A stretch of 14,195 bases of DNA from a virus. The stretch is from the UHGV virus genome UHGV-1730239; one strand, given 5' to 3'. Made by a program: the position numbers and the translations under genes. Positions 1 through 14,195 of the stretch are shown here, in pieces (the first letter of the stretch is position 1; every line of letters starts with the position of its first letter). Below the pieces are notes generated by a model. That model did not search any database. It had not been told where the DNA came from and saw only the letters and a list, made by a program, of their open reading frames with translations.

Positions 1-13
1 GCTCTTCCGATCT
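1..13. other. Illumina adapter remnant (GCTCTTCCGATCT); technical sequence marking the contig end
   Basis: Exact match to the reverse complement of the common adapter stem AGATCGGAAGAGC at the very first bases; biological sequence starts at ~14. Confidence 0.85.
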
Positions 14-51
14 ATAAACAGGTTGAAGGTGATGCGCTTAGAATTTTTCAT
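14..51 (-). CDS. Possible N-terminal fragment of a leftward gene running off the contig end (MKNSKRITFNLFI...)
   Basis: Minus-strand ATG at 51..49 preceded by AGGAG (revcomp of 61-65) with a 9-nt spacer; the frame stays open into the adapter. Only 13 codons visible. Confidence 0.2.
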
Positions 52-101
52 TTATAAATACTCCTGAATGCTCTGTGTTAGTTTTAATGTTTCATGCTAA
101 A

Positions 102-138
102 AGCCTCCTTGCGCCAACAGGGAGGCTTTTTTATTTTT
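102..138. terminator. Rho-independent terminator-like hairpin, usable in both directions
   Basis: Stem AGCCTCC (102-108) pairs with GGAGGCT (121-127), extendable to ~10 bp; followed on + by TTTTTTATTTTT and on - by TTTT. Sits ~40 nt downstream of the minus-strand gene 171-350. Confidence 0.6.
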
Positions 139-170
139 AAAGCCATCATATAATTCTCAGTGAAAGTGGA

Positions 171-350
171 TTAACAAACTTGAACGTTAATCTTTATCTG
201 AATTTCGTATTTCTTCATTAGCTTATAGAATCCGCTTCTATCAATTCCTTCCTTCTTAAAGAAATTCTCGCCGCCTCGTTCAGTATCGCCATAAAAGCGT
301 TTAGCAATATCAACAATCATTTCACGAGTAAACTTAACAGGTCTAGCCAT
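171..350 (-). CDS. Small DNA-binding protein with resolvase-type (HTH_7-like) helix-turn-helix, 59 aa
   Basis: ATG at 350 with GAGGA 8 nt upstream; the listed 64-aa ORF begins at an upstream TTG. Protein MARPVKFTREMIVDIAKRFYGD...SGFYKLMKKYEI matches the GRPxxFT...IA...S..FYK..KK pattern of invertase/resolvase C-terminal HTH domains. Paralog of the gene at 3448-3675. Confidence 0.6.
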   Translation of the reverse strand: MARPVKFTREMIVDIAKRFYGDTERGGENFFKKEGIDRSGFYKLMKKYEIQIKINVQVC

Positions 351-449
351 AAGTAGATTCCTCAAATGTGGATTAATAAGGACAATAAAAAGAGCTTTTC
401 GCCCTCGATACTTCTATTTATAAAATGATTTTCAGAAAACCCTGTAAAA

Positions 450-573
450 CCACTGTATATCCGATCAGTGGGAGCACGAATTGCTAAAGAGAAGATTAAT
501 AATTAATCAATTCGTACATTATTCAATCGAAAAAGCACTGTATGTTTAACCAGTGCTGTATGTGTTAACAGTG
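450..573. promoter_or_regulatory. Three copies of an 18-bp operator-like element CTGTAT-N7-CAGTG; the third also fits a LexA-box pattern
   Basis: 453-470 CTGTATATCCGATCAGTG; 538-555 CTGTATGTTTAACCAGTG; 556-573 CTGTATGTGTTAACAGTG, with the last two directly tandem. Copies 1 and 2 are flanked to form CCACTG..CAGTGG and GCACTG..CAGTGC inverted repeats. 556-571 reads CTGT-N8-ACAG. Confidence 0.5.
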
Positions 574-692
574 AATCAGGGGATTTTCAGAAGTGAACAA
601 TCATTTCATGCATGTATTTATACACGAAAAAATCTTGCTTATCATCAATATGGGGATTGTTTCGAAAATTTCAACCCCTATCAACGAGAAAA

Positions 693-737
693 AGTATAAA
701 ATAATCCTTGACAGTTGTCAATACACTTGACCTAAGC
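693..737. promoter_or_regulatory. Divergent promoter/operator: palindrome TTGACA-GT-TGTCAA with a leftward sigma70-like promoter and a rightward TTGACA-N13-TTGACCTAAG motif
   Basis: Palindrome at 708-721. Leftward: -35 TTGACA (721..716), 17-bp spacer, -10 TATACT (698..693), pointing at the operator triplet and gene 171-350. Rightward: bipartite motif 708-737, no convincing -10. Confidence 0.5.
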
Positions 738-918
738 GAGAAATGACTATCAAAATTTTTGTGTGAAAATGGCGGATAACGATTATCAACCTTTATAACC
801 TATTATAGCACGGCGACCTTTTGATCATTCCTTTTAAATCATGCGATTACCGCGATTTTTGGTGATTTTATGATTAAATAATATACAAGAATTTTCTATC
901 AAAATTTTTGATGAAAAC

Positions 919-1038
919 CCTACACTACAAACCTACACTTTAAAGGGATTGGCCTACACTACACTAGCCAGTAAACCTACACTATAACACCCTCAAACCT
1001 ACACTATGAAACCTACACACCTACACTAACCCTACACT
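919..1038 (+). repeat. Iteron-like array of eight direct CCTACACT copies (consensus aAACCTACACT) with irregular 8-23 bp spacing
   Basis: Copies at 919, 932, 953, 976, 998, 1012 (variant CCTACACA), 1020 and 1031, all in the same orientation, immediately after an AT-rich tract (841-915). No ORF covers the array. Confidence 0.8.
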
Positions 1039-1223
1039 TCAATCTCATAAGTGTATGATCTTGAAAGACATTTAACCCCACAGACCATAGAATATAAAAT
1101 TCGAACTAACGTTCTCCTTTTTGCTCGTTTTCTCTCACTACGTTCAAGAAAGATCTCGCAAAAAGAATACGGCGTAGCCGTGCGCGAAGCGCCCATCAAC
1201 ACCTTCTAAGACCTGCAAGCAGG

Positions 1224-1382
1224 ATTCGAAAGGGATTGGATAGTTCGCTTCGCTCACGTTCACGCCTACGGCGTTCACTCGCTTTTGAAAGGATTTTCTT
1301 AGAAAGGGATTTAATACTAGTTACTAACTGATTCTAGTAAACGAACGAAGTGAGTAACAATCACTTTCTAGAAAGGTATTGG
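1224..1382. repeat. Second repeat family: short palindrome followed by AAAGG(G)ATT(GG), inside a GC-rich ORF-free stretch
   Basis: TTCGAAAGGGATTGG (1224-1239), TTTTGAAAGGATTTT (1284-1298), TTCTTAGAAAGGGATTT (1296-1312), TTTCTAGAAAGGTATTGG (1365-1382); an extra copy TTTAAAGGGATTGG at 939-952 lies inside the CCTACACT array. Confidence 0.6.
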
Positions 1383-1383
1383 T

Positions 1384-1412
1384 ATCCCTTCGGGATTGCA
1401 ACCTTCGGTTGC
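1384..1412 (+). other. Two tandem stable hairpins with CTTCGG centres
   Basis: ATCCC-TTC-GGGAT (1384-1396) and GCAACC-TTC-GGTTGC (1398-1412), back to back with no U-tract; candidate RNA processing/stability elements or protein-binding palindromes. Confidence 0.5.
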
Positions 1413-1611
1413 TAAATTGCTTCCTGATTATTATTTCTCCAAAAGAAAGATTCTTATATTCTAAAGATACTTCTTCGTTTTGATGATGATTTAATCAAAA
1501 CTATGAAGGAGGGCTATGCCCGACTGAATACAATCACCTTTCATAATAACAAGAATTTTCTCTTTATAAATAATATTAGATTGATTCACTTTCTTTTAGA
1601 GGATTTCCACT

Positions 1612-2079
1612 ATGAACCATAAAATGACTACCACTACTCCTTTCATCCTGTTAGGTTTTGATGCTGATAGCTTCCACAATGACAAGTTAATGAAGATGTT
1701 CCGTGAACGTGGTTATAACATCCTTTTCAATTCCGATGAATCCCATTTCTCTAGTGCATGGTATGCGTTTTGCCGTAATAAGAAGCCGACCATTGTTGTT
1801 AACGTCTTCACCGATGAAGATCGCTTAAAGTACCAGAATCTACCAGCAATTATTGTTCGTGATGATCTGCCGTTTGAAGTCCGTTCCGGTGACATTGATC
1901 TGGGTAGCTTCGTTACTGTCTATGAACTGGATGAAGCAATGTTTAACTACGGCAAAGAAACCGCTCAGGAAGCCCCAGAACAAGATGAAGAAGATGAGGA
2001 AGACGAAGACTACGCTCCAATCTGTTTTTCTTCTCAGAATGGCTTCTACGGTTACGATGAAGGCTTAGATATGCTGTAA
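1612..2079 (+). CDS. Hypothetical strongly acidic early protein, 155 aa
   Basis: ATG at 1612 with AGAGGA 8 nt upstream; coherent codon usage; C-terminal tract EAPEQDEEDEEDEDY. By eye roughly 35 D/E against 13 K/R. Confidence 0.7.
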   Translation: MNHKMTTTTPFILLGFDADSFHNDKLMKMFRERGYNILFNSDESHFSSAWYAFCRNKKPTIVVNVFTDEDRLKYQNLPAIIVRDDLPFEVRSGDIDLGSFVTVYELDEAMFNYGKETAQEAPEQDEEDEEDEDYAPICFSSQNGFYGYDEGLDML

Positions 2080-2180
2080 GTTAGGTCAACCCTTTGGCGT
2101 CTTGTCAAGGTGTATTGACAAAAATTTCTGACTTTTTATGATTATCGCACTTGACAACTTTGATTATATTTGACCTAGAT
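2080..2180. promoter_or_regulatory. Promoter/operator region with inverted repeat TTGTCAA-N6-TTGACAA, a sigma70-like promoter, and two further TTGACA-N13-TTGACCTAR motifs
   Basis: Inverted repeat 2102-2121; -35 TTGACA (2115-2120), 16-bp spacer, -10 TATGAT (2137-2142). Bipartite motif on + at 2151-2180 (TTGACA-N13-TTGACCTAGA) and on - at 2108..2080 (TTGACA-N13-TTGACCTAAC). Confidence 0.55.
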
Positions 2181-2199
2181 TTGTAAAGAGGATGTAAGC

Positions 2200-2379
2200 A
2201 TGAAAACCTTTACCCGTGAACGTGAACCAGGAGTGATCGAAACCCGCCGTCGTCGTTATGTTAAGGGCTTTGGTTGGGCTACCGAAACCGTGGATGTGGA
2301 ATATAAAGACGAATCCAAAGCACCGAAACCATCACCTTTGCAAATGGCTTTACGCGGATTGTGTGCTAACAACAAATAA
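2200..2379 (+). CDS. Small basic hypothetical protein, 59 aa (MKTFTREREPGVIETRRRRYVKGFGW...); not in the supplied ORF track
   Basis: ATG at 2200 with AGAGGA (2187-2192) 7 nt upstream, ~55 nt downstream of the promoter; host-like codon usage (cgt, ccg, gaa, acc); stop TAA 2377-2379. Confidence 0.55.
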   Translation: MKTFTREREPGVIETRRRRYVKGFGWATETVDVEYKDESKAPKPSPLQMALRGLCANNK

Positions 2380-2402
2380 GAAATAGCTCTTATAAATAAA
2401 AT

Positions 2403-2426
2403 TGTTCCGGTGGTGATGCCGGAACA
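2403..2426 (+). other. Intergenic hairpin without U-tract between the 59-aa gene and the Rha-family gene
   Basis: TGTTCCGG (2403-2410) pairs with CCGGAACA (2419-2426) around an 8-nt loop; followed by GGGAGG, not a T-run. Possible processing site or attenuator. Confidence 0.4.
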
Positions 2427-2470
2427 GGGAGGATTAAATCGCAAAACCGTTAATTAAGGGGAATTTTACT

Positions 2471-3307
2471 ATGAATACTGTTACTGCTATGACTACTAAA
2501 ACTGCTTCCGTGTCTCTGGTTGTTGATAACACCAAACCGCTGACCATGTCTACCCGTCAGATTGCTGAATTAACCGGAAAGAGTCATGATCACGTTTTGC
2601 GTGATTTTCGTAATATGATTGCTTCTATCCAAAAAGGTAGCAAACTGGTCGGAGGAGATCTCACCAATTTTGGCGAGATTGGTTTTTATACAGAAACCAC
2701 GTACAAAGATAAACAAAACCGCAATCAGCGCATGTATGAACTGGATGAAGATCTCTGTAATACACTGGTTATGGGATACGATGCACCGCTTCGCTTCAAA
2801 ATTGCTAAAGAATGGCGTTTGATGAAAGAAGGTAAAGCTAATGTTCCGGTTAATCCATATGAACACTTTGAAGAAACCGATTGGATCGAACTGGCATTAG
2901 AGAAAACCCGTGAAAATAAACGTCTGGTTGAATTACATGTTCGTAAAGCTATCGACACTCACAGCTTAACCCGTCTTCTGGGCGAAAAACGAGGCTCAAC
3001 GAAGGTACAAATGATTCTGAAAGGATTGTGTGCGGCTGGTGTTCTTGAGCGTCGTCTGGATGCTTCTGGTAAGCCTAACGGCTATGATCTGCTTCCTCCT
3101 GGTTATATGTTCGCTCGTATGTCTGCACACGGTCAGATCGAGTTCACTGCTGATGCTATCCCGCATCTCGTAAAACTCGGATTGCTTGAAGAAGAAAAGG
3201 CCGCAACTTTGAAATTGCCACAGCCGAACAACTCACGAGCAATCGTCAATAATACTGCTTTGCTGATTCGTCAGAATGCCGGATCGCTGGAACACTTCGG
3301 ACTGTAA
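2471..3307 (+). CDS. Rha-family phage regulatory protein (antirepressor-like), 278 aa
   Basis: ATG at 2471 with AAGGGGA upstream. N-terminal segment LTMSTRQIAELTGKSHDHVLRDFRNMI matches the Rha/ORF6N motif (IAELTGK.H..VLRD.R); ends with tandem stops TAA-TAA. Confidence 0.8.
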   Translation: MNTVTAMTTKTASVSLVVDNTKPLTMSTRQIAELTGKSHDHVLRDFRNMIASIQKGSKLVGGDLTNFGEIGFYTETTYKDKQNRNQRMYELDEDLCNTLVMGYDAPLRFKIAKEWRLMKEGKANVPVNPYEHFEETDWIELALEKTRENKRLVELHVRKAIDTHSLTRLLGEKRGSTKVQMILKGLCAAGVLERRLDASGKPNGYDLLPPGYMFARMSAHGQIEFTADAIPHLVKLGLLEEEKAATLKLPQPNNSRAIVNNTALLIRQNAGSLEHFGL

Positions 3308-3315
3308 TAATTTTT

Positions 3316-3341
3316 GCCCCTGAAATTCAGGGGCTTTTTTG
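3316..3341 (+). terminator. Rho-independent terminator after the Rha-family gene
   Basis: GCCCCTG (3316-3322), 5-nt loop, CAGGGGC (3328-3334), then TTTTTT (3335-3340). Confidence 0.8.
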
Positions 3342-3412
3342 TATCTACATCACGCGAATTTTCGCGCCATCTTCCACCAACCCGCCGATGGCGTTTTGGT
3401 CACCTTACAGAT

Positions 3413-3439
3413 ATAAAAAAAGCCACTCCGAAGAGTGGC
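3413..3439 (-). terminator. Rho-independent terminator for the leftward two-gene operon
   Basis: On the minus strand: GCCACTC, UUCG loop, GAGUGGC, then a 7-8 U run (A-run 3414-3421 on +); 8 nt beyond the stop of gene 3448-3675. Confidence 0.8.
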
Positions 3440-3447
3440 AAAGAGAA

Positions 3448-3675
3448 TCAAAAACCTGTTGCTTCTACGATCTGACCGTCGCCAATCTGAACATAGAATT
3501 TAATATCTAACTTCTTGATATTTTTATAGAATTGAGCTACCGATATAGCGTGCTCACTAAGAATCTGTTCTTTCGCTTCCTTCCCGCGATCCGCTGTATA
3601 GTAAGCGTAGGCAATATCAGCCATTTGTTCTTGAGTGAAACGTGCCGGACGACCGCGAGTAGCTTTAATAGTCAT
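3448..3675 (-). CDS. Small DNA-binding protein with resolvase-type (HTH_7-like) helix-turn-helix, 75 aa
   Basis: ATG at 3675 with GGAGGA 7 nt upstream; the listed ORF starts further upstream without an SD. Protein MTIKATRGRPARFTQEQMADIAYAYY...ISVAQFYKNIKKLDI carries the GRPxxFT.EQ...IA...S..FYK motif. Paralog of gene 171-350. Confidence 0.65.
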   Translation of the reverse strand: MTIKATRGRPARFTQEQMADIAYAYYTADRGKEAKEQILSEHAISVAQFYKNIKKLDIKFYVQIGDGQIVEATGF

Positions 3676-3710
3676 AGTTACTTCCTCCAAATTAAAGTGA
3701 ATGTTCACCT

Positions 3711-4313
3711 TTATTTAGAGGACTTACATTTTATCGGAAAAAGTTCTCCATCGTCAACTGACATAAAAAACTCTGCCTTAATCCCGTACTTCTTCAACCG
3801 TGAATAATATGTACCCCGACTTATATCAACCTTGCGAAGCACTTCAAAGAAGGATTTAGGATCGTTGTAATAGTGGCTGTACTTCACGTTAGCGAGTTCT
3901 ACAAACAATTCCCTTGTATCACCATAGCCTTTCTTGAAAGCCACGTTACGATAGCGTGTAATAGCGTGATTTAGTCTCTTCTGTTTCAACACTTCCCTGA
4001 TCGGTGTCCACTGCAACCGATAGATCGGACCGTCATCCACTCGATAATAACGCTTGATATCAAAATCAAACCATTCACGGACTCTCTGGAACTCTGTATG
4101 TGATGTTCTATGCTTCTTAAAGAAGTTGTGAACGTCTGTATAACCATTATCACGGTAAAATTCTATTAAAATCTCTTTCGCTTCCTCACGGCTAAACCCA
4201 GATGTTGTGTAATCGGTCTTTAAGTGCTTATGTTTTACTGGCAAACGATATTCATGATCGGTACAAGACAAGGCTAATTCTAATTCATCTCTTTCTTGCT
4301 GATTAATTAGCAT
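3711..4313 (-). CDS. Hypothetical protein, 200 aa, with C-terminal HTH-like segment ([13 protein letters not shown]); first gene of the leftward operon
   Basis: ATG at 4313 with AAGGGGGG upstream; its stop sits 35 nt before the next start. The C-terminal motif resembles the recognition helices of the two small HTH proteins. Function not recognised. Confidence 0.6.
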
Positions 4314-4400
4314 ACACCCCCCTTAAATCTTAATACCCGTATTTATCAGAAAATCAACAATTTAATAAATACCTTCATATTTCGTAATGAGGGTAATTAC

Positions 4401-6308
4401 ATGAAACTGATTTCGAACAAGGCCAAATTAAAAAAGATTCTTAAAAATGCCGCAAAATATATCACTCCACCGCCTAAACTCCTTCCGTCTGAATGGTGCG
4501 AAGCGAATATGGTGCTGGTAGATGGTCCTCAAGCTGGGGATAAAGTTAAATTGTTGTCATTCCAAAAAGGCATGATTGATGCACCTTTCCTTGAGAACAA
4601 GAAAAAGTATGTCCTGATGACCAGTGCACAGATCGGAAAGACTACCATCCTGAACGGTATCCTGTTTAACCAGATGGCTAACGATCCATGCAATATGATT
4701 ATCGGACAATCAACCGCTAAAGAAATGTCTCAATATCTCGCTGGTAAGATCCGACCGTCTATCGAAGCATGTGATGCATTAAAAGACGTTGTTACAGACA
4801 AGAATGATCGCAATGCGGTTAACAACAATAACCAACTCCAGCTAAAAACGAATCACTTCCTGTACATGGTATCGCTAACCAGTCCATCGACCCTACGTGG
4901 TAAGACCGCAAAGGTTGGATTGCTTGACGAAATCGATGCTGCTACAGCCTCAGAAGAAGGTGATCCGGTGGCACTGGCTGCTAACCGTTTAACTACCTTT
5001 GGCGATGAAGGCCGATTAGTCGTATCCAGTACCCCGACCAGTAAGCTGGGAAGCATTAACCAGCAATGGTTATCAAGCGATATGCGTATGTTTTTTGTTC
5101 CGTGTCCTCATTGCGGTAGACACCAGGTGATCGAGTGGGAAAACGTTCAATTTGAATGGCGTAACATCGATGGTAAGAACTTGCCCGATCCTGATACCGC
5201 TCGTTATATTTGCCCCCACTGTAAGCAATCATGGACAGAAGGGGAACGAATCAGGGCAGTAGCGCAAGGCGAGTGGAGAGCAACCCGTGAAAGTGAAGTA
5301 GCCGGATTCTGGATCAGCCGTTTGTATTCACCTTTCAGCACGATCCGCGCTTGTGTGGTTGATTTTAGCCATGCGTGGCAATCCTTTGATTTACAATCAT
5401 TTTATAACACCGTGTTAGGCAAGGTATACGACGATCAGGACACGGCAGTAGAAGCAAATGAACTGGAACAACTCAAAACAGATGTTTCTATCGAGAATAT
5501 CCCTGATGACGTGATTTTCTTGTGCTCAGGAATTGACCAGCAATTGGACCGCGCAGAATCTACCATCTTAGGTGTAGCGAAAGATAAGGTTTACATTCTG
5601 GATCACCGCAGCTTTTACGATCATAACTGTGAACGATATGAATCACCTGTTTGGGATCGCCTGGTTAACTTCAAGAAAACCAAATTCTATAACGTTAATG
5701 GTGAACGTGTACCAATGCTCGCCAGCTTCCTTGATACATCGAACGGTCGATTCACTCAAGCCGGATACCGTATTTGCGGCAAGTGGAAGAACCTACACGC
5801 GATCAAAGGTAGTTCATCTGGTAATGCTCCAGTGATTCCGGTTAAACCTACCCGCACAGGTGGTCATGAATTGCTTATGCTGGGTGTTAACGTTGGTAAA
5901 TCCGCTGTTCGTGAAATGCTGGTTAGAAACCTGAAAGATAATCCTCATATTGGCTTAGAAATATCAGAAACCGTTCCTGATGATTATCTCGATCAGCTTT
6001 TGAGTGAATCCATCAAGCGTACTACTACTGGCGTGCGTTGGGTGAAAAATCCAGGTAGTACCCGAAACGAGGCTCTCGACTGTCTGGTTTATAGCTATGC
6101 TGCTTCTCGCTACGTCCTTTCAAAAATGTCATGGGATAAACTCATTGCAATGAAAGATAGTTTGAACCGTGAACCAGAAGAATCCGTAGAATCTCCTAAA
6201 TCGCAATCTAACGAGCAAATCGAAGAAACTAAGCCAATCACACGACCGCAACGTCAAAACATCGCCAGACGCCCAAATAGAGGCCGTAGCTGGATAACAT
6301 CGTTCTAA
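4401..6308 (+). CDS. terL: Terminase large subunit, lambda gpA family, 635 aa
   Basis: ATG at 4401 with GAGGG upstream. Walker A-like TSAQIGKTT and Walker B-like GLLDEID; the segments GIDQQLDR and RNEALDC(L)VY match what I recall of lambda gpA (GIDSQLDR, RNEALDCFVY); CxxC pairs (CPHCG, CPHCK). Confidence 0.9.
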
Positions 6309-6313
6309 TCATT

Positions 6314-6332
6314 CGCCGTCCTTCGGGGCGGC
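6314..6332 (+). other. Stable UUCG-tetraloop hairpin right after the terminase stop, no U-tract
   Basis: GCCGUCC-UUCG-GGGCGGC (one G-U pair) followed by TTACTCC; more consistent with a processing/stability element than a terminator. Confidence 0.45.
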
Positions 6333-6380
6333 TTACTCCTAAATATTGTTAATCCAATAACAATTAAATAAGGGGTAATT

Positions 6381-6875
6381 ATGAGTTTAGAACTAATTCC
6401 CTTAGTAATTCGTAAAGGCGAAAAAATCACGCTGGCGAATGAAGAGGGTGTAACCATTCAGATAGGAAATAGTAAAGGCATCATTTATCAGGTTGATGAT
6501 ACTCCGGCTAATCACGAGATTAAAACCTTAGATTTTGCCGAAGGTAAATATACCATCGTAACCACGTTGGAAGATGAACTGGTATCAATGCAGGAATTAA
6601 CTGTTTTACCTATTTTTCAGCGTCAATCCAAAAAAGAATATCTGCGGGAAACTATCGCCACTGTCGAGCAAGTTATTTTCGCCCGGCTATCGGGGGATGA
6701 GGCCGCATTATCTCAAATGACAGTGAAAGGGAATACTTTCGCCTATGAGTCATTGGCTGTTCTCCAGCAATTAAAGACTGATTATGAACGTCAGTTATCT
6801 AAATTAATTCAAGCCGAACGACGTAAACAGGGAATTAGCCCGATTAAAAATATTAAAGTACGTCTTACGCGATAA
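6381..6875 (+). CDS. gpW-like head-tail joining protein with ~90-aa N-terminal extension, 164 aa
   Basis: ATG at 6381 with AAGGGG upstream; sits between terminase and portal as lambda W does. The C-terminal ~70 aa (LSGDEAALSQMTVKGNTFAYESLAVLQQLKTDYERQ) resembles my recollection of gpW ([37 protein letters not shown]); the N-terminal part is unrecognised. Confidence 0.5.
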   Translation: MSLELIPLVIRKGEKITLANEEGVTIQIGNSKGIIYQVDDTPANHEIKTLDFAEGKYTIVTTLEDELVSMQELTVLPIFQRQSKKEYLRETIATVEQVIFARLSGDEAALSQMTVKGNTFAYESLAVLQQLKTDYERQLSKLIQAERRKQGISPIKNIKVRLTR

Positions 6876-6885
6876 GGGGTAAATC

Positions 6886-8397
6886 ATGTTTAATCTTTTT
6901 CGACGCAAAAAGGCGGTAGAAACTCCAGTTAAAACTAATCACCGCCAGCAACAACAAAAAATCTTTATCGACAAACAAGTAGAAAAATTCCAGAAAGATT
7001 TGTCTAAGCGTTCTTTGGGCTTAGTCGGTGATCGCATTGATGGACAACTTCAACAAGATACTATCACAGGAACCTTCAATAAGGCTCTCAAATCGAACGG
7101 TAAGCGCCTTTATGATCAGGGTCGTACTCTGGCCTTAAACACTTCCGTAGGCAGTCGCTACACGCAATACATCACCGATATGGTGGTTGGTACTGGTCTA
7201 GATCCGAAGCCGTCAGTTGTTAAATCAAATGGCAAACTTGATAGCGCACTGAATAAGCAGATCGAGAATGCTTTCTGGAAGTGGGCGCAGAATGCTAAAC
7301 GCTTCTCTCGTAACGGTCGCTTTAACTTCCGTGAATTGCTGGTAATGGCTGAACGTGAGCGCGTTATGGGTGGTGAGTGCTTCATAGTTTTAACCAAAGA
7401 AAACAATGAGTTAAATGTTTCTATCCTGTCTGCTGATAAGTGCGACTGGACGCTCAACCGTGAAGTAAGCAAAGAACGCGCTATCTATCAGGGGATCGAG
7501 TATGACGTAGAAACAATGCGCCCTGTTGCATTTTGGTTTCGTAAAATCAACCTACTGACTCAGACTTACACAGGTGATAACTATCGCGTAGATGCTTCGC
7601 AAGTATGCCATTATTATCAACCACTTGCGGCTGAATCTCTGCGTGGTGTGACTGACTTCCTGCCAGTGATCAAGGATATTGCGCATCAAGACGCATTCCG
7701 CGAAACCGCGATCATCCAGAAACGTATTGCAGCTAGCTCTATGGGCTTTATCGAACGTCCGAAAGATTCTGGTGACGATTTTGATACTGGTGAAGAGGAT
7801 GAACAATATCAAGCGCCGGAAGTAGTACAGGATTTTGCACCGGGTACTATTCAGGAATTGCCGGAAGGGGCAACGATTAAATCAATCCAAGCTACTCAAT
7901 CAGGCGATGATTTCAATTCCTTCAATGATGCGATGTTTACTAGCGTATCAATGGGCTTAGGCGTGTTCAAACAGGGCTTAACAGGAGATTGTTCACAAAT
8001 CAACTACTCAGCCGCGCGTTTTGGTGAATTAACTCAACGCACACGAGTTAAAGCACTGCAAAACAAATTGATTGAAACAGTGGTATTGCCAATTTTCGAA
8101 GCGTATCTGCGTCATTATTCCGCGCGTGGCATTGTTCCGATTCGTATTACTGCAATTCCGCATATTATCGACAACACTACTATTATTCGTCCGCGTTTTG
8201 AATCCGTCGATCCTATTAAAGACGTAAACGCTGAAATTGCTTTAATTGATAAAGGACTTAAATCACGTACTGCTGTTATTTTGGAACGTGGCGACGATCC
8301 AGAAAAGGTATTTTCAGAGATCAGGTCTGAATCCAGTGCACTAAATATTATCGTTAATGGTGAGGGTGAAGAAAAAAATTCCCCAGCCGATCCCTAA
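6886..8397 (+). CDS. Portal protein, 503 aa
   Basis: ATG at 6886 with AAGGGG overlapping the upstream stop; portal-typical size and position between terminase and protease/capsid; acidic segment DSGDDFDTGEEDEQY; ends TAA-TAA. Confidence 0.8.
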   Translation: MFNLFRRKKAVETPVKTNHRQQQQKIFIDKQVEKFQKDLSKRSLGLVGDRIDGQLQQDTITGTFNKALKSNGKRLYDQGRTLALNTSVGSRYTQYITDMVVGTGLDPKPSVVKSNGKLDSALNKQIENAFWKWAQNAKRFSRNGRFNFRELLVMAERERVMGGECFIVLTKENNELNVSILSADKCDWTLNREVSKERAIYQGIEYDVETMRPVAFWFRKINLLTQTYTGDNYRVDASQVCHYYQPLAAESLRGVTDFLPVIKDIAHQDAFRETAIIQKRIAASSMGFIERPKDSGDDFDTGEEDEQYQAPEVVQDFAPGTIQELPEGATIKSIQATQSGDDFNSFNDAMFTSVSMGLGVFKQGLTGDCSQINYSAARFGELTQRTRVKALQNKLIETVVLPIFEAYLRHYSARGIVPIRITAIPHIIDNTTIIRPRFESVDPIKDVNAEIALIDKGLKSRTAVILERGDDPEKVFSEIRSESSALNIIVNGEGEEKNSPADP

Positions 8398-8405
8398 TAA
8401 CCAAC

Positions 8406-8422
8406 GGGGGCGCAATGCCCCC
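8406..8422 (+). other. Intergenic hairpin after portal, no U-tract
   Basis: GGGGGC-GCAAT-GCCCCC followed by AATTAATT. Confidence 0.4.
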
Positions 8423-8442
8423 AATTAATTAAAGGTGATTAA

Positions 8443-10446
8443 ATGCTTAAATTTCGCCGCGATCTTAACGGTTACGGTGGAGTTATTAATGAAGGGCATA
8501 ACGATCAATACGAATTTGAAATTGCTTTCTCAAGTACACAGCCTTATCAGCGCCAATTTTGGGATGAGCAAAATCAAGAAATGGTGGTATTAGATGAAAT
8601 TCTGGTACATACACCGGAAGCGGTTGATCTGTCTCGTCTGAATAATAACGCTCCGTTGCTGTTCAATCACAATTTCGATAATCACATTGGTGTAGTTTGT
8701 AACGCTCGAATCGATGCGGATAACGTAGGTCGTGCTCTGGTTAAGTTCTCCAAGCATGGGACTTTGGCTAATGATATTCGTAATAAAGTCATTGAAGGTA
8801 CGATGGAAAAAATTTCGGTCGGCTATGACATTAAAGAGTATCACATCGACTACGCTAAATCGCAACTCATTGTTTCTAAATGGATTCCTCACGAGATTTC
8901 ATGGGTGTCGGTGCCCGCAGACGATACGGTCGGTTTAAATCGCTCTCTAAATACTATCACAGTTAATTTGGAGGCTAAACGCGATATGACTAAAGAACAA
9001 ATCGAAGAAATCAAAGAAGAACAAGAACCCGCTCAGGTTGAAGAAACTCCGGTAGAAGAAAATAAAGAATCGGAAGTAGAAGAAACTCAAGAGCGCCAAG
9101 TTGAAGAGAATGAAGAAAATGAAAATCTCGAAGACGGAAAAGACGCTGAACATCCTGAAAGTGTTGATGATGATAGTTCAACTGTTCGGGAAGCAGAAGA
9201 AGTAAAAGAAGAACGTGAAGCCGCGCCGGTTGAAGAAGAAAAAATCGAAGAAGTGGCTGAACGTTCCGAAGAAGACGAATTAGAAATTCGCGAGATCGCT
9301 CGCGAGCTAAATATTAACGACGAAGAATTAGAACGCGCATTGGCAGTTAAAGACATGACGCCGGAAGCATTCCGCACTAAGGCACTAAATAATCTCGTCA
9401 ATTCTCAACGTAATAACGAACAACAAATTAAGGACTCTAAAATGGAAAAAACTTTTGACCTGAATGCTGTATTTCGCTCTCTGATCGATGGTGACACTCT
9501 GGGTGCTCATGAAGCTGAATATTCCGCGATGGCTGCTACTGCAACTGTACAGCGCGGTCGTGCTGCTCGTAGTGGCTCTGTATTCGTTCCGGCTGCTGCT
9601 CTGCGTGCTGCTGCTGCTGGTAACACTAAAGCTACTCTGGAAGCTGTAACTGATGAAAAACTGCTGACTGAATCCTATGTAGAAATGCTGATGCCTCAGT
9701 CCGTTCTGGGTCGTCTGGGTGTGACTGTCCTGTCTGGCCTGAATAGCCCGATCGCAGTACCAAAAATGACATCTTCTTGTGTTGACGGTTTCGGTTTCGT
9801 TTCGGAGAACGGCGAGGCACCAGAAAATAAAGCAGGTTTCGCAAACGTGAAAATGGCTCCTAAGACTTTCGCAGGGGGCAACCCAATTTCGCGCCTCAGC
9901 CTCAAAACCGTTCCGGGTATCGCAACCCTGATCACTGATCACATGAACAAAGCTGTTCGCATCAAACTGGAACAACTGGTGCTGTCTGATAAAGAAAACG
10001 CTAACGGTCCGAAAGGTCTGATTAAACATCTGGTTGATGCAAGCCGTGTTGAAAAGAAAGCTGCTTTCACCTACAAAGACTTCCTGAAAGAAATCGCAGC
10101 ACTGACTGATGCTGGCGTTCCGGCACAGTCCATCAAATTTGCCATGAGCGGTGCAACTGCTGCTGAACTGGAATCTACCCTGAAAGATAACGGCGTTTCC
10201 GGTTATATCATCGAAAACGGCAAACTGGCTGGTTACGACGTAGTTACTTCTGGTGTTATTCCGGCTGGCCACATCGTTCTGGGTGACTTCTCCGCGATTA
10301 CTATCGGTGAGTGGGGCGGTCTTGAGGTAGATCTGGACGATTCAACCTACCGAGCACAGGGCGCTATCGTTCCGCGTATCTGGGTAGACCTGGACTTCAC
10401 CGTAGTTCAGCCGGAAGCTCTGAAAGTTCTTCATATCTCTGAATGA
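8443..10446 (+). CDS. Single-ORF fusion of prohead protease (HK97 gp4-like), acidic scaffold-like linker and HK97-fold major capsid protein, 667 aa
   Basis: ATG at 8443 with AAAGGTGA upstream. N-terminal ~170 aa carry prohead-protease motifs (LLFNHN..HIGVV, ISVGYD, ISWVSVPADD). Residues ~180-330 are an E/D/K-rich predicted coiled coil. The C-terminal ~335 aa look like an HK97-type capsid protein ending in ...VQPEALKVLHISE. Single TGA stop. Confidence 0.85.
   Translation: MLKFRRDLNGYGGVINEGHNDQYEFEIAFSSTQPYQRQFWDEQNQEMVVLDEILVHTPEAVDLSRLNNNAPLLFNHNFDNHIGVVCNARIDADNVGRALVKFSKHGTLANDIRNKVIEGTMEKISVGYDIKEYHIDYAKSQLIVSKWIPHEISWVSVPADDTVGLNRSLNTITVNLEAKRDMTKEQIEEIKEEQEPAQVEETPVEENKESEVEETQERQVEENEENENLEDGKDAEHPESVDDDSSTVREAEEVKEEREAAPVEEEKIEEVAERSEEDELEIREIARELNINDEELERALAVKDMTPEAFRTKALNNLVNSQRNNEQQIKDSKMEKTFDLNAVFRSLIDGDTLGAHEAEYSAMAATATVQRGRAARSGSVFVPAAALRAAAAGNTKATLEAVTDEKLLTESYVEMLMPQSVLGRLGVTVLSGLNSPIAVPKMTSSCVDGFGFVSENGEAPENKAGFANVKMAPKTFAGGNPISRLSLKTVPGIATLITDHMNKAVRIKLEQLVLSDKENANGPKGLIKHLVDASRVEKKAAFTYKDFLKEIAALTDAGVPAQSIKFAMSGATAAELESTLKDNGVSGYIIENGKLAGYDVVTSGVIPAGHIVLGDFSAITIGEWGGLEVDLDDSTYRAQGAIVPRIWVDLDFTVVQPEALKVLHISE
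9442..10446 (+). CDS. Candidate nested product: major capsid protein alone, from an internal in-frame start (334 aa)
   Basis: In-frame ATG at 9442 with AAGGA 7 nt upstream; from here codon usage switches by eye to the highly-expressed style (ctg, cgt, ggt, gct, tcc). A second in-frame ATG at 8986 has GGAGG 11 nt upstream. Confidence 0.4.
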   Translation: MEKTFDLNAVFRSLIDGDTLGAHEAEYSAMAATATVQRGRAARSGSVFVPAAALRAAAAGNTKATLEAVTDEKLLTESYVEMLMPQSVLGRLGVTVLSGLNSPIAVPKMTSSCVDGFGFVSENGEAPENKAGFANVKMAPKTFAGGNPISRLSLKTVPGIATLITDHMNKAVRIKLEQLVLSDKENANGPKGLIKHLVDASRVEKKAAFTYKDFLKEIAALTDAGVPAQSIKFAMSGATAAELESTLKDNGVSGYIIENGKLAGYDVVTSGVIPAGHIVLGDFSAITIGEWGGLEVDLDDSTYRAQGAIVPRIWVDLDFTVVQPEALKVLHISE

Positions 10447-12254: not shown

Positions 12255-14195
12255 ATGCAAAGTCTACAGCACAAACGATCCGGTGTTGCTGGTAAAAAAC
12301 CGACGCCGGAACAATTACAGGTCGGTGAATTAGCAATAAACTTAGTCGACCATGTAATTTACACTAAAGATAAAAGCAATGCGGTAGTGCAAATCAGTGT
12401 TTCCCCAGAAAGTCATAATACTTTAAACAAAAAAGTAGACACCAACAAGACGAACACCGATAAAGTTATTGTCGCAAATAAAAAAGAAGCTGCTAATAAT
12501 CTGGCTACCGCTAAAACTGAATTAACTAACACTATCAACACCAAAGACGCCGCAATCAATAAACGTGCTGATGGTATCAATACCGCTGTTTTGAATCTAC
12601 AGAAGATGGTAGCGGCAAATAAAACTGATGCAGATAACAAGATTACTTCTTTAACATCGACTGTCACCGCAAACAACACAGCGATCAATAAAAAAGTTGA
12701 TGCAAACAAGATGCAAGCCGACAAAGAGATCACCCGCTTAGATGGTCGTATCGATGATGCTGTTTTCCGTGGTGAATTGCCAACTGATGCAAATTTAGAT
12801 ACATATGGTCCACTTCCTGAATTTGTCGGTGTATGGGGCAAATCAACGTCTACTAACGCAACTCCGGCTTATAGTTTCCCGGAAGATGGCGCGGTTGGTA
12901 TTCTTGAAGTTTTCTCCGCTGGTAACTTTGCGGCAACTCAGCGTTATACGACGCGCTACGGTAATATTTTTGTTCGTAACCTTTCCGCTAAATGGAATGG
13001 CTCTAATGGTCCGTGGACGCCGTGGCGTAATATTCAGATGGGTACTCGTCCGCTTTCGACGTCAATTAATCTTAATGATTTTGGCGGTGTTGAGCATTTT
13101 GGCTTATGGCGAAACGGGTCTACATCAATTGCGTCGTTAGATCGAAACTTCCCAGAAGCAGGGGCAGACGGTCGAGGATTGTTAGAAGTTTTTGAAGGTG
13201 GTAGTTATTCCCGTATGCAGCGTTACACAACCATTAACGGTCGTGTGTATATTCGTACTCTCGCCGCTTCGTGGGATGCATCCGCGCCGAGATGGGAAGC
13301 GTGGAAAAAGGTTGGTCTTTTTACCCCGTCTGAAATTGGCACATACAATAAAGCGGAAATTGATAAGAAAATTTCTGATTTGGACAATGCGCTAGTATCT
13401 AAACCGATCCAGCCGTTACCGGACGTATGGATACCGTTTAATGATTCTCTGGATATGATCACAGGATTTGCGCCGGGATATAAAAAAATTACTGTTGGTG
13501 CGGATGTTGTCACTATGCCTAGTGACAAGATTGTTAGCTTTACTCGTGCATCAACCGCTACATATATTAATAAATCTGGTAGGCTTAGTGTCGCTGCAAT
13601 TGATGAACCACGATTTGAAAAAAATGGTTTATTGATTGAAGGCCAACGAACTAACTATTTTGTTAAATCTAACACCCCTGCCGAATGGACTAGCACAAGC
13701 AATATTGATAAAAGCAATAATGGCGTTGATGAATTTGGTTTTTCATTTGCAAAAATGAAAACTAAGGAAAATATGACGGGTCAATCATCCGCTCTTAGTT
13801 TGCATACATGCAGCGCATCCCGTGGTGTTGATGTTAGTGGTGATAATAAGTTTTGCACAGTTTCTTGTCGTGTTAAGGCTCCTGATGGCCTCCGTTGCCG
13901 TTTACGCTTTGAAAAATACGATGGATCGGTTTACACCTTTTTGGGTGATGCTTATTTGACTTTCGGTAGCACATTGACAATAGAAAAAACTGGTGGTGCT
14001 GCTAATCGTATTACGGCTAACGCTACTAAAGATCCGGTTACTGGTTGGATTTTTTACGAAGCGACGATAGAAGCGGTTGAAGGGGAAACCTTGATTGGTG
14101 CAATGATTCAGTATGCACCGAAAAAAGGCGGTGTAACCGAAGCAGGGGATTATATCTATCTTGCCACACCACAATTCGAAAATGGTAGTTGTGCG
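12255..14195 (+). CDS. Tail fibre protein, 3'-partial (at least 647 aa, continues past the window end)
   Basis: ATG at 12255 with GAGGTGA upstream; the frame is open to the last base and is absent from the ORF track only because no stop falls in the window. Contains an N/K/T/A-rich coiled-coil-like shaft (~12400-12760) and two ~48-aa repeats with motif LEVF...QRYTT..G..(F/Y)(V/I)R.L.A.W....W..W resembling the knob domain of pyocin/phage tail fibres. Confidence 0.75.
   Translation, partial: MQSLQHKRSGVAGKKPTPEQLQVGELAINLVDHVIYTKDKSNAVVQISVSPESHNTLNKKVDTNKTNTDKVIVANKKEAANNLATAKTELTNTINTKDAAINKRADGINTAVLNLQKMVAANKTDADNKITSLTSTVTANNTAINKKVDANKMQADKEITRLDGRIDDAVFRGELPTDANLDTYGPLPEFVGVWGKSTSTNATPAYSFPEDGAVGILEVFSAGNFAATQRYTTRYGNIFVRNLSAKWNGSNGPWTPWRNIQMGTRPLSTSINLNDFGGVEHFGLWRNGSTSIASLDRNFPEAGADGRGLLEVFEGGSYSRMQRYTTINGRVYIRTLAASWDASAPRWEAWKKVGLFTPSEIGTYNKAEIDKKISDLDNALVSKPIQPLPDVWIPFNDSLDMITGFAPGYKKITVGADVVTMPSDKIVSFTRASTATYINKSGRLSVAAIDEPRFEKNGLLIEGQRTNYFVKSNTPAEWTSTSNIDKSNNGVDEFGFSFAKMKTKENMTGQSSALSLHTCSASRGVDVSGDNKFCTVSCRVKAPDGLRCRLRFEKYDGSVYTFLGDAYLTFGSTLTIEKTGGAANRITANATKDPVTGWIFYEATIEAVEGETLIGAMIQYAPKKGGVTEAGDYIYLATPQFENGSCA

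Follow-up and report, generated by a model that had tools for sequence, protein, structure and literature searches.

The DNA analysed here, hereafter the window, is a stretch of 14,195 nucleotides from the virus genome UHGV-1730239, which we found to be the left arm of an Escherichia coli prophage that measures 35.9 kb in strain 2014EL-1346-6. The window contains a gene-free stretch of 1.25 kb (positions 366-1611), an obvious place for the control of replication and induction, and the segment studied here (1141-1420) forms its right half. The RefSeq annotation has no coding sequence between the genes for a protein of 59 amino acids (aa) and for one of 155 aa, and the initial annotation had described the segment as GC-rich, highly structured and free of open reading frames (ORFs). 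The lack of a gene was borne out, since only ORFs of 31-52 aa with GTG or TTG starts are present, none of them a RefSeq coding sequence, and in relatives these are disrupted by a 2-bp insertion (L004) or a 1-bp deletion (L051). The GC-richness applies to the core (1160-1280, 53.7%) but not to the whole segment, which has 44.6% GC against 42.1% for the window; positions 1281-1383 are AT-rich (32% GC).

Hairpins were counted by a strict rule (a perfect stem of at least 4 bp with at most one A-T pair, and a 3-nt loop). Four of the nine hairpins that obey this rule in the 14.2-kb window lie within the 280-bp segment, as the several short hairpins first described had suggested, and a fifth lies at 1511. 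Shuffled versions of the segment contained 0.18 such hairpins on average and none of 2000 reached four; the cluster of hairpins and repeats is real and non-random. The complementary segments noticed earlier were also recovered: GCGAAGCG (1184-1191) pairs with CGCTTCGC (1246-1253), and a repeat scan showed that both belong to a 21-nt inverted repeat (1171-1191/1246-1266) that is 81% complementary. The DNA fold of the hairpin region gave z = -3.7. Two back-to-back stem-loops are indeed present at 1384-1412 (1384-1396 and 1398-1412); the CTTCGG-centred hairpins pair best with 3-nt loops, which are TTC on the + strand and GAA on the - strand and are not C(UUCG)G tetraloops. A second repeat family had been claimed as well, and we found it in the form of a 9-bp box, AAAGGGATT, with three exact copies and variants in or near the segment. 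The features of the locus are listed in Table 1.

Table 1. Features of the gene-free region and of its borders, in window coordinates.
Feature	Position	Strand	Remarks
p331 gene, 5' end	14..50	-	orphan 331-aa protein; remainder beyond the window start; 14 onward aligns within the L001/L024 ORF
AT-rich tract	860..915 (60-nt stretch 860-919)		80-82% A+T; kept in all cassette types; abuts the iterons
Palindrome ATCAAAATTTTTGAT	898-912		right end of the AT-rich tract
Iteron array, eight direct CCTACAC(T)	916..1041 (repeats 919-1037)	+	type-A specificity element
AAAGGGATTGG box	942..952	+	within the iteron array
AT island CATAGAATATAAAAT	1086..1100	+	-10-like (TAGAAT / TAAAAT); common to types A and B amid unrelated sequence
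Hairpin CTTTTTGC...GCAAAAAG	1117..1165		types A and B both keep CAAAAAGA-ATA ahead of the first GC hairpin
Two mini hairpins, ACGGC-GTA-GCCGT (1169-1181) and GCGC-GAA-GCGC (1182-1192)	1169..1192	+	G-N-A loops
Imperfect dyad, two 21-nt arms	1171..1266		centre is the palindrome CCTGCAAGCAGG (1212-1223); holds the box at 1229-1239
TCGCTTCGCTCA and ACGCC-TAC-GGCGT (1262-1274)	1245..1274	-	GC-GAA-GC and GTA loop, both on the - strand
Boxes AAAGGATT (1288) and AAAGGGATT (1303)	1288..1311	+	sequence kept in types A and B begins at ~1279
Imperfect palindrome	1355..1384		inverted box AATCACTTT (1359-1367) and direct box AAAGGTATT (1372-1380); 2-5 AATCACTTT units in relatives
Tandem hairpins ATCCC-TTC-GGGAT (1384-1396) and GCAACC-TTC-GGTTGC (1398-1412)	1384..1412	+	
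PeSL-like stretch, 81 bp	1424..1504	+	78-79% identical to RB49-like (Krischvirus) intergenic DNA; invariant in four cassette types
Hairpin GGGC-TAT-GCCC	1511..1521	+	GGGC-TTTA-GCCC or GGC-GAA-GCC in relatives
First downstream gene, 155 aa	1612..2079	+	acidic C-terminus; no known family; TATAAATA (1565-1572) and Shine-Dalgarno GAGGA ahead

Comparison of about 30 distinct related contigs, obtained by viral-contig and assembly searches, showed that the iterons and the dyad (window ~915-1279) form a cassette with sharp boundaries, the breakpoints being at ~915 and ~1279 with the hairpin dyad inside. At least four cassette types were distinguished by their repeat: CCTACAC in type A, to which the window belongs, TTTTTGCCCCTGAAA in type B, ATCCCCG in type C and GTACAAGGATGTACA in type D. 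All four carry 8-13 direct repeats phased at ~11 or 22 bp, and in each an inverted copy of the iteron stands just before the AT island. In the window the spacings are 13, 21, 23, 22, 14, 8 and 11 bp, about one or two helical turns, and the array holds eight of the nine CCTACAC copies of the whole window (0.93 expected).

In every one of the 30 distinct contigs the cassette type went with that of the divergent p331-family gene or genes upstream: p331 and p80 accompany type A, a 313-aa protein type B, and two proteins of 333-371 aa types C and D. The 64-aa gene between p331 and the cassette has two alleles, both seen with type A, and window 423-915 is common to several types and assorts independently of the cassette. 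Since these two recombine freely between types, the co-variation is not simple linkage, and the natural reading is that the p331-family protein would recognise something in the cassette, most plausibly the repeats.

The hairpin part of types A and B is homologous but diverged on one skeleton, in the order CAAAAAGA-ATA, GGCGTAGCC, GCGCGAAGCGC, a spacer, TCGCTTCGCTCAC and then one or two hairpins, with CGCTTCGCTCAC ahead of the hairpin(s). One stem shows a compensatory change of C-G to T-A, from ACGCC-TAC-GGCGT in type A to ACGTC-TGC-GACG in type B, and three of the four loop differences between the two types concern the middle base only (GAA/GTA, TAC/TGC, TTC/TGC), G-N-A being retained. The G-N-A side of the loops is on the top strand in the left arm (1169-1192), whereas the right arm (1246-1274) and the hairpins past it have it on the bottom strand; type B has the same layout. 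The compensatory change, the loop differences that mostly spare all but the middle base and the recurring skeleton together argue that the hairpins are selected as hairpins. Variation between GAA and GTA in the loop of GCGC-GAA-GCGC was also seen among relatives, and a 12-mer of the right-arm hairpins recurs in type B and twice in phage DCP80. Types C and D have a shorter version with one GC hairpin. The TerL of DCP80 is 44% identical, and this phage has a long gene-free leader in which the same short sequences recur, namely GGGCGTAGCCC, GCCGAAGGC, two copies of TCGCTTCGCTCA and CTCACTTCGTTCG.

As a separate observation, positions 1-9614 of the DCP80 record (PQ671644.1, L023) hold a lambda-type terminase/portal/capsid block related to that of the prophage, after a gene-free, hairpin-rich leader of 1.3 kb, while the 141-kb record is classed as T4-like Straboviridae; it may be a chimeric assembly.

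An origin of the dyad as a repetitive extragenic palindrome or bacterial interspersed mosaic element (REP/BIME) was ruled out, because window 1160-1285 was found in 18 of 5426 genomes, at one place in each and always inside the same prophage.

The AAAGGGATT box occurs exactly at 942, 1229 and 1303 and nowhere else in the 35.9-kb prophage, and copies with one mismatch are found at 1359 (- strand) and 1372. The palindrome at 1355-1384 is perfect over 36 bp in relative L020, the AATCACTTT units, of ~21 bp, vary in number from one to five among relatives, and in types A and B one box copy is found within the iteron array or next to it. Because the boxes are found in both orientations, form a palindrome and vary in copy number, we read them as putative binding sites; their pattern fits a DNA-binding protein common to all types and not an RNA motif.

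We propose, with a probability of about 40%, that 1141-1420 is the right half of a replication-origin-like control region and not a gene. The observed basis is made up of the repeats, the hairpins, the boxes, the cassette structure, the match between cassette and protein, the similarity to the PeSL elements of T4-type phages that is described below, and the lack of known replication genes: in Pfam, PHROGs and NCBIfam searches with the proteins of the whole 35.9-kb prophage, no match to replication, repressor or polymerase families was obtained, and no helicase, primase or polymerase gene is recognisable in the prophage. What we infer from this is that proteins bind, the DNA melts, hairpins extrude and priming and termination take place. 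A type-specific DNA-binding protein, p331 in this case, would coat the phased iterons (916-1041), and its binding would open the adjoining AT-rich DNA at 860-915, at the AT island (1086-1100) or at both. The GC-rich dyad (1169-1274) would then extrude small, very stable hairpins, from the top strand in the left arm and from the bottom strand in the right arm, which would serve as entry or priming signals for the host primase or primosome and lead to outward DNA synthesis; host priming would be needed, as no helicase, primase or polymerase of the phage itself could be recognised. The AAAGGGATT/AATCACTTT boxes (1229-1380) would bind a second factor common to all types, and the terminal hairpins (1384-1412) would keep transcription out of the promoter cassette that serves the first early gene.

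Iterons with adjacent AT-rich DNA are known from lambda ori with its O protein and from P1 oriR with RepA. The helically phased direct repeats just left of the segment and the AT-rich tract next to them are of this kind, and the likeness to these origins and to P4 ori/crr with its alpha protein extends to the large number of direct repeats, their ~11/22-bp phase and the joint exchange of repeat and protein type between related phages. The differences are that the candidate initiator resembles no known initiator, that its gene is 0.9-2 kb away beyond another gene, that good DnaA boxes are lacking, and that a GC-rich hairpin dyad and a second repeat family come after the iterons. In RSF1010 oriV, single-strand initiation (ssi) signals ssiA and ssiB are on opposite strands, and in plasmid R1 a G-site serves downstream priming. 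By analogy, the order of iterons, spacer and large inverted repeat would correspond to that of the IncQ oriV, as would the arm hairpins on opposite strands, apparently oriented for outward priming. Stable hairpins on each strand near a candidate origin are likewise what ssi signals present (G4-type and phiX-type, as in the R1 G-site and the ColE1 primosome assembly sites), and the hairpins here appear to be of the same very stable d(C-GNA-G) class; Hirao and co-workers reportedly found an exceptional stability of d(GCGAAGC)-type G-N-A mini hairpins. The differences are that the region has no sequence similarity to these systems and that the phage lacks a primase of its own, so that host DnaG or PriA would be required.

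As an iteron-type control region with apparent promoter/stem-loop cassettes at its borders, the locus is of a familiar kind; what is unusual is its make-up, with four natural specificity types, a hairpin dyad, an orphan protein and a further family of boxes. Should the region indeed be an origin, it would define a new family of initiators and a compact origin wholly dependent on host enzymes, along with natural specificity types suited to swap experiments. A more far-reaching version, in which the p331 family, the iterons and the dyad would make up an undescribed minimal phage replicon, with an orphan initiator confined to this prophage group that opens the DNA and opposite-strand G-N-A hairpins that recruit host priming, and in which types A-D would be replication-specificity or incompatibility groups shuffled at PeSL-like boundaries, is speculative and we regard it as doubtful.

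Several results weigh against the origin reading. DnaA boxes and/or sites for the integration host factor (IHF) are usual in enterobacterial iteron origins; across 400-1650, the only match to TTATNCACA with at most one mismatch is at 618, none being near the iterons, and there is no perfect WATCAANNNNTTR. The hairpins have no sequence relatedness to known ssi signals, and a blastn search of 1100-1420 against 72,556 plasmids (E<=1), aimed at plasmid origins and ssi, gave no match. The p331 protein had no match in Pfam, PHROGs or NCBIfam and no similarity to any known initiator, gave coiled-coil noise only against PDB sequences and had no tblastn match among phages and plasmids. A profile search of 1.84 billion representative proteins with p331 returned six clusters, all within its own family; in two large protein searches, all that came up were E. 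coli/Shigella proteins labelled 'hypothetical'. The AlphaFold2 model of p331 (predicted local distance difference test, pLDDT, 42) is unusable, with no more to see than a long coiled coil and an N-terminal part rich in beta structure. The G-N-A loop is not universal, as TTT or TTTA loops occur in the first hairpin of some type B copies, and the near-invariance of 1101-1350 is partly due to the selection of type-A loci and gives no evidence of special constraint. The same co-variation of protein and cassette would be expected if p331 were a repressor or an activator and the cassette held its operators. Similar mini hairpins of the RB49 PeSLs act as transcription terminators (PMC2839356), which by analogy the hairpins here might also do, and at every mechanistic step of the origin reading the binding, replication or priming is something we infer.

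The co-variation of protein and site in exchangeable cassettes is the classic signature of heteroimmune phages. It could therefore reflect a regulatory switch, in which the p331-family protein would be a type-specific regulator of immunity or activation with the iterons as its operators, the AAAGGGATT boxes would be operators of a conserved small helix-turn-helix protein (the 64-aa, 75-aa or 200-aa one) and the hairpins would be incidental palindromic sites. The box palindrome at 1355-1384 (perfect in L020), the restriction of the boxes to one region of the prophage and a box that overlaps the -35 position of the candidate promoter 1065-1100 in L008/L022 are consistent with such a switch. However, 8-13 phased direct repeats would be unusual for an operator, and the compensatory change seen in a stem from type A to type B speaks for hairpins that do fold.

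The position of p331 also bears on this switch. Three LexA-box-like sites, CTGTATATCCGATCAG (453-468), CTGTATGTTTAACCAG (538-553) and CTGTATGTGTTAACAG (556-571), are kept in relatives and lie between a leftward promoter match (721->693) and the 64-aa gene and operon leading to p331. They suggest a direct SOS control of the prophage, which has no CI-like repressor, and, since they stand between that promoter and the p331 operon, that p331 would be made on induction, in line with the origin reading, and would not be a maintenance repressor. With these LexA-like boxes and a terminator-like hairpin (99-130) upstream of it, p331 looks induced and not devoted to the maintenance of lysogeny. In addition, a bipartite motif, TTGACA-N13-TTGACCTA, occurs three times in the window, at 708-734 (+), 2082-2108 (-) and 2151-2177 (+), where 0.01 would be expected, and two of the copies flank a strong promoter (2115-2142). 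This motif is a candidate operator of a separate, type-independent regulator and a better candidate for the operator of the maintenance repressor, and on balance we consider the regulatory switch unlikely. The initial annotation had taken the copy at 708 to be directed into the segment. Its orientation is as described and resembles that of the copy at 2151-2177 before an ORF, but the best sigma-70 match nearby (11/12, - strand, 721->693) points away, and ~400 bp with the iteron array in between separate the motif from the segment.

Two side observations concern this leftward operon. CTGTATGTTTAACCAG and CTGTATGTGTTAACAG are in tandem, as in colicin operators, and the terminator-like hairpin at 99-130, between the 64-aa gene and p331, is bidirectional, relatives keeping its stem and changing its loop.

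The right border of the segment resembles the PeSL elements of the T4-type phages RB49 and phi1, which consist of a stem-loop, an AT-rich region and an early promoter followed by a Shine-Dalgarno sequence and a start codon (Arbiol et al. 2010, PMC2839356). The stem-loop terminates transcription in vivo, as shown for RB49 PeSL211/210, and PeSLs are recombination points for module shuffling (PMC2839356). In RB49, two mini hairpins (GTCGC-TTT-GCGAC and GCC-GTA-GGC) directly precede a stretch like 1424-1504 (78% identity over 81 bp), and the pair at 1384-1412 is probably the stem-loop part of a PeSL-like cassette. In both systems small GC-rich stem-loops are followed by an AT-rich stretch and then by a gene start, and both mark a recombination boundary between exchangeable modules. 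In types C and D, different hairpins replace the 1384-1412 pair at the same place, including one with a 7-bp stem (GACGCTC-AGG-GAGCGTC). The stem at 1511-1521 is kept in relatives with a varying length, which rules out coding there. Unlike RB49, which is T4-type, the host of this cassette is a temperate siphovirus-like prophage; it does not share the -10 part of the RB49 promoter, and no convincing conserved -35/-10 pair was found. Promoter/stem-loop cassettes of the sort known from lytic T4-type phages may also occur in a temperate phage, here at a module boundary. The likeness covers only 1384-1504 and leaves the dyad and the boxes unexplained.

This resemblance carries another explanation, in which the segment would act at the level of the transcript as an untranslated leader or spacer of early transcription whose hairpins, as terminators, attenuators or stabilisers in RNA, would shield the 155-aa gene's promoter, and in which the iterons and p331 would control a promoter-like element at 1065-1100. 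The termination of transcription by PeSL stem-loops in vivo (PMC2839356) and the mini hairpins at the same place in RB49 agree with it, as does the exchange of the terminal hairpins in types C and D for unrelated ones, the structure being kept and not the sequence. Promoter-like matches are found on the + strand at 1065-1093 and 1072-1100, and the inverted iteron copy in each type is just upstream of the AT island. On the other hand, the + strand hairpins lack a U-tract behind them, and the 1065-1100 candidate has a -35 that varies within type A (L008/L022), while no equivalent promoter is seen in types B-D. The + strand also folds only slightly better than its shuffled versions (z -2.3 to -0.7). 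The box orientations and the place of the dyad in a type-specific cassette would also be left unexplained. We regard a transcript-level element as rather unlikely.

Evidence for a single structured RNA was not obtained. Rfam 15 gave no match at gathering thresholds over the whole window, and matches at E<=10 were only chance-level ones to small nucleolar RNA and microRNA models. A conserved fold had been put forward as a check of the RNA proposal, and it failed across relatives: the minimum-energy folds of both strands differ among the four types and only local hairpins recur. The types share no fold architecture, and no sigma-70 promoter conserved across types precedes the segment. A common variant, A1187T, breaks the long-range stem and leaves the local hairpin intact. 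Of the two readings offered at first, a single structured RNA thus lacks the support of Rfam, folds and promoter, and a cluster of binding sites fits better because the boxes occur in both orientations and vary in copy number and because the cassette co-varies with a protein gene. Roles at the RNA level may still exist, as the - strand folds better in types A-C and the terminal hairpins resemble PeSL terminators.

The - strand fold of the window segment reached -109.6 kcal/mol (z -4.8) compared to -90.7 kcal/mol (z -2.3) for the + strand, and the same preference was seen in types A, B and C. An antisense small RNA on the - strand would account for this preference; it would start to the right of the dyad, from candidate promoters at 1360->1331 or 1570->1543, end at the hairpin ACGGCUACGCCGU followed by AUUCUUUUUG (1181->1160), and have a type-specific core that regulates replication or early genes. 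The terminator-like site is on the - strand, its hairpin and ...TCTTTTTG being kept in types A and B, and a natural variant, G1264A (L042), gives a wobble pair on the - strand only. However, the - strand promoter candidates score 9/12 and the one at 1360 is missing from the long form of type B, in which type the U-run comes 10 nt past the hairpin. The types do not have a predicted fold in common, the long-range stem is disrupted by A1187T whichever strand is considered, and no Rfam family matches. These points make an antisense RNA quite improbable.

The terminase of the prophage is of the lambda gpA/Nu1 type, and a GC-rich dyad flanked by repeated boxes is reminiscent of a cos site, in which the dyad would be cut by terminase and the AAAGGGATT boxes would bind TerS, like lambda cosN and the R sites of cosB. 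The lambda R sites (AGAAAGGAAACG) bear a loose resemblance to the boxes. The likeness to lambda cos (cosQ-cosN-cosB) thus lies in the terminase family and in a GC-rich symmetric core with repeated boxes nearby. A cos site would be beside terS and conserved with the terminase, but the dyad region is neither: it lies 3.4 kb from terS and 3 kb from terL, and types A and B have different dyads but TerS and TerL that are 91-99% identical, so that the core is type-specific and the terminase is not. Moreover, a conventional candidate is located directly upstream of terS, where GC-rich DNA (...ACGCGGGCGGGATTC...) carries a GAGTTTTCG motif that is common to distant relatives with adjacent terS and terL. 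A cos function of the dyad is consequently highly improbable.

The GC-rich stretch upstream of terS (...GAGTTTTCGGCACCCCGG...ACGCGGGCGGGATTC...) is at 16450-16640 of L024, outside the window, and is likely to be the cos region. In a distant relative (L084, 6213-6266), nine tandem CCCTTA hexamers upstream of terS are followed at once by TCGCTTCGC. Contig ends were considered as a clue to cos and dropped: a 35.1-kb Logan contig ends at the attachment site, and metagenome contigs break at the cassette boundary, for which an assembly branch point is the simplest cause.

The prophage family is uncharacterised but fairly common in E. coli. The window matched 58 of 5426 complete E. coli genomes (~1%), two of them at 100% identity, and carriers of the family include enterotoxigenic and O55:H7 strains. 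In strain 2014EL-1346-6 the prophage splits hicB, and its opposite end codes for a 559-aa large serine recombinase, the type of enzyme by which it was inserted. No cultured representative was found in the phage collection searched, a TerL scan of species-representative genomes gave no relative, and the literature searched yielded no description of such an E. coli prophage integrated in hicB. A search for tRNA and transfer-messenger RNA genes found none.

The structural genes are conventional, with a gpA-type large terminase, a lambda-type portal, a protease-capsid fusion and tail genes. The terS gene, assigned via phrog_57, is located 6.3 kb upstream of terL (L024 16682-17236, compared to window 4401-6308). 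More distant relatives, whose TerL is 39-43% identical, lack the ~6-kb module and have terS and terL side by side, which implies that the early functions of the lineage all sit in this module. The 1.25-kb gene-free stretch that includes the segment belongs to it too, in favour of the origin reading.

The IS1 insertion sequence is present at 15171-15868 of L025, in the lysis/tail end of the prophage of strain 2014EL-1346-6, and that copy may be defective. The first 13 positions of the window, GCTCTTCCGATCT, are the end of an Illumina adapter, phage DNA beginning at base 14 inside the p331 gene; they are probably an untrimmed adapter at a contig end, or could alternatively be a recurrent fragment end. 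The TATAAATA motif ahead of the 155-aa gene is the T4 late-promoter consensus and occurs five times in the window (0.89 expected), at 53-60 (+), 415-422 (-), 615-622 (-), 1565-1572 (+) and 2391-2398 (+). All five copies are in the early region, three of them just upstream of the 64-aa, 155-aa and Rha genes, and no gp55-like factor was seen. The protease-capsid fusion is encoded by a 667-aa ORF (8443-10446) that joins the Peptidase_S78 domain of a prohead protease and the Phage_capsid domain of a major capsid protein. Positions 13425-13662 share ~80% nucleotide identity with tail-fibre genes of the T5-like phages T5_ev219 and VSe12, the sole megablast match of the whole window to the phage collection.

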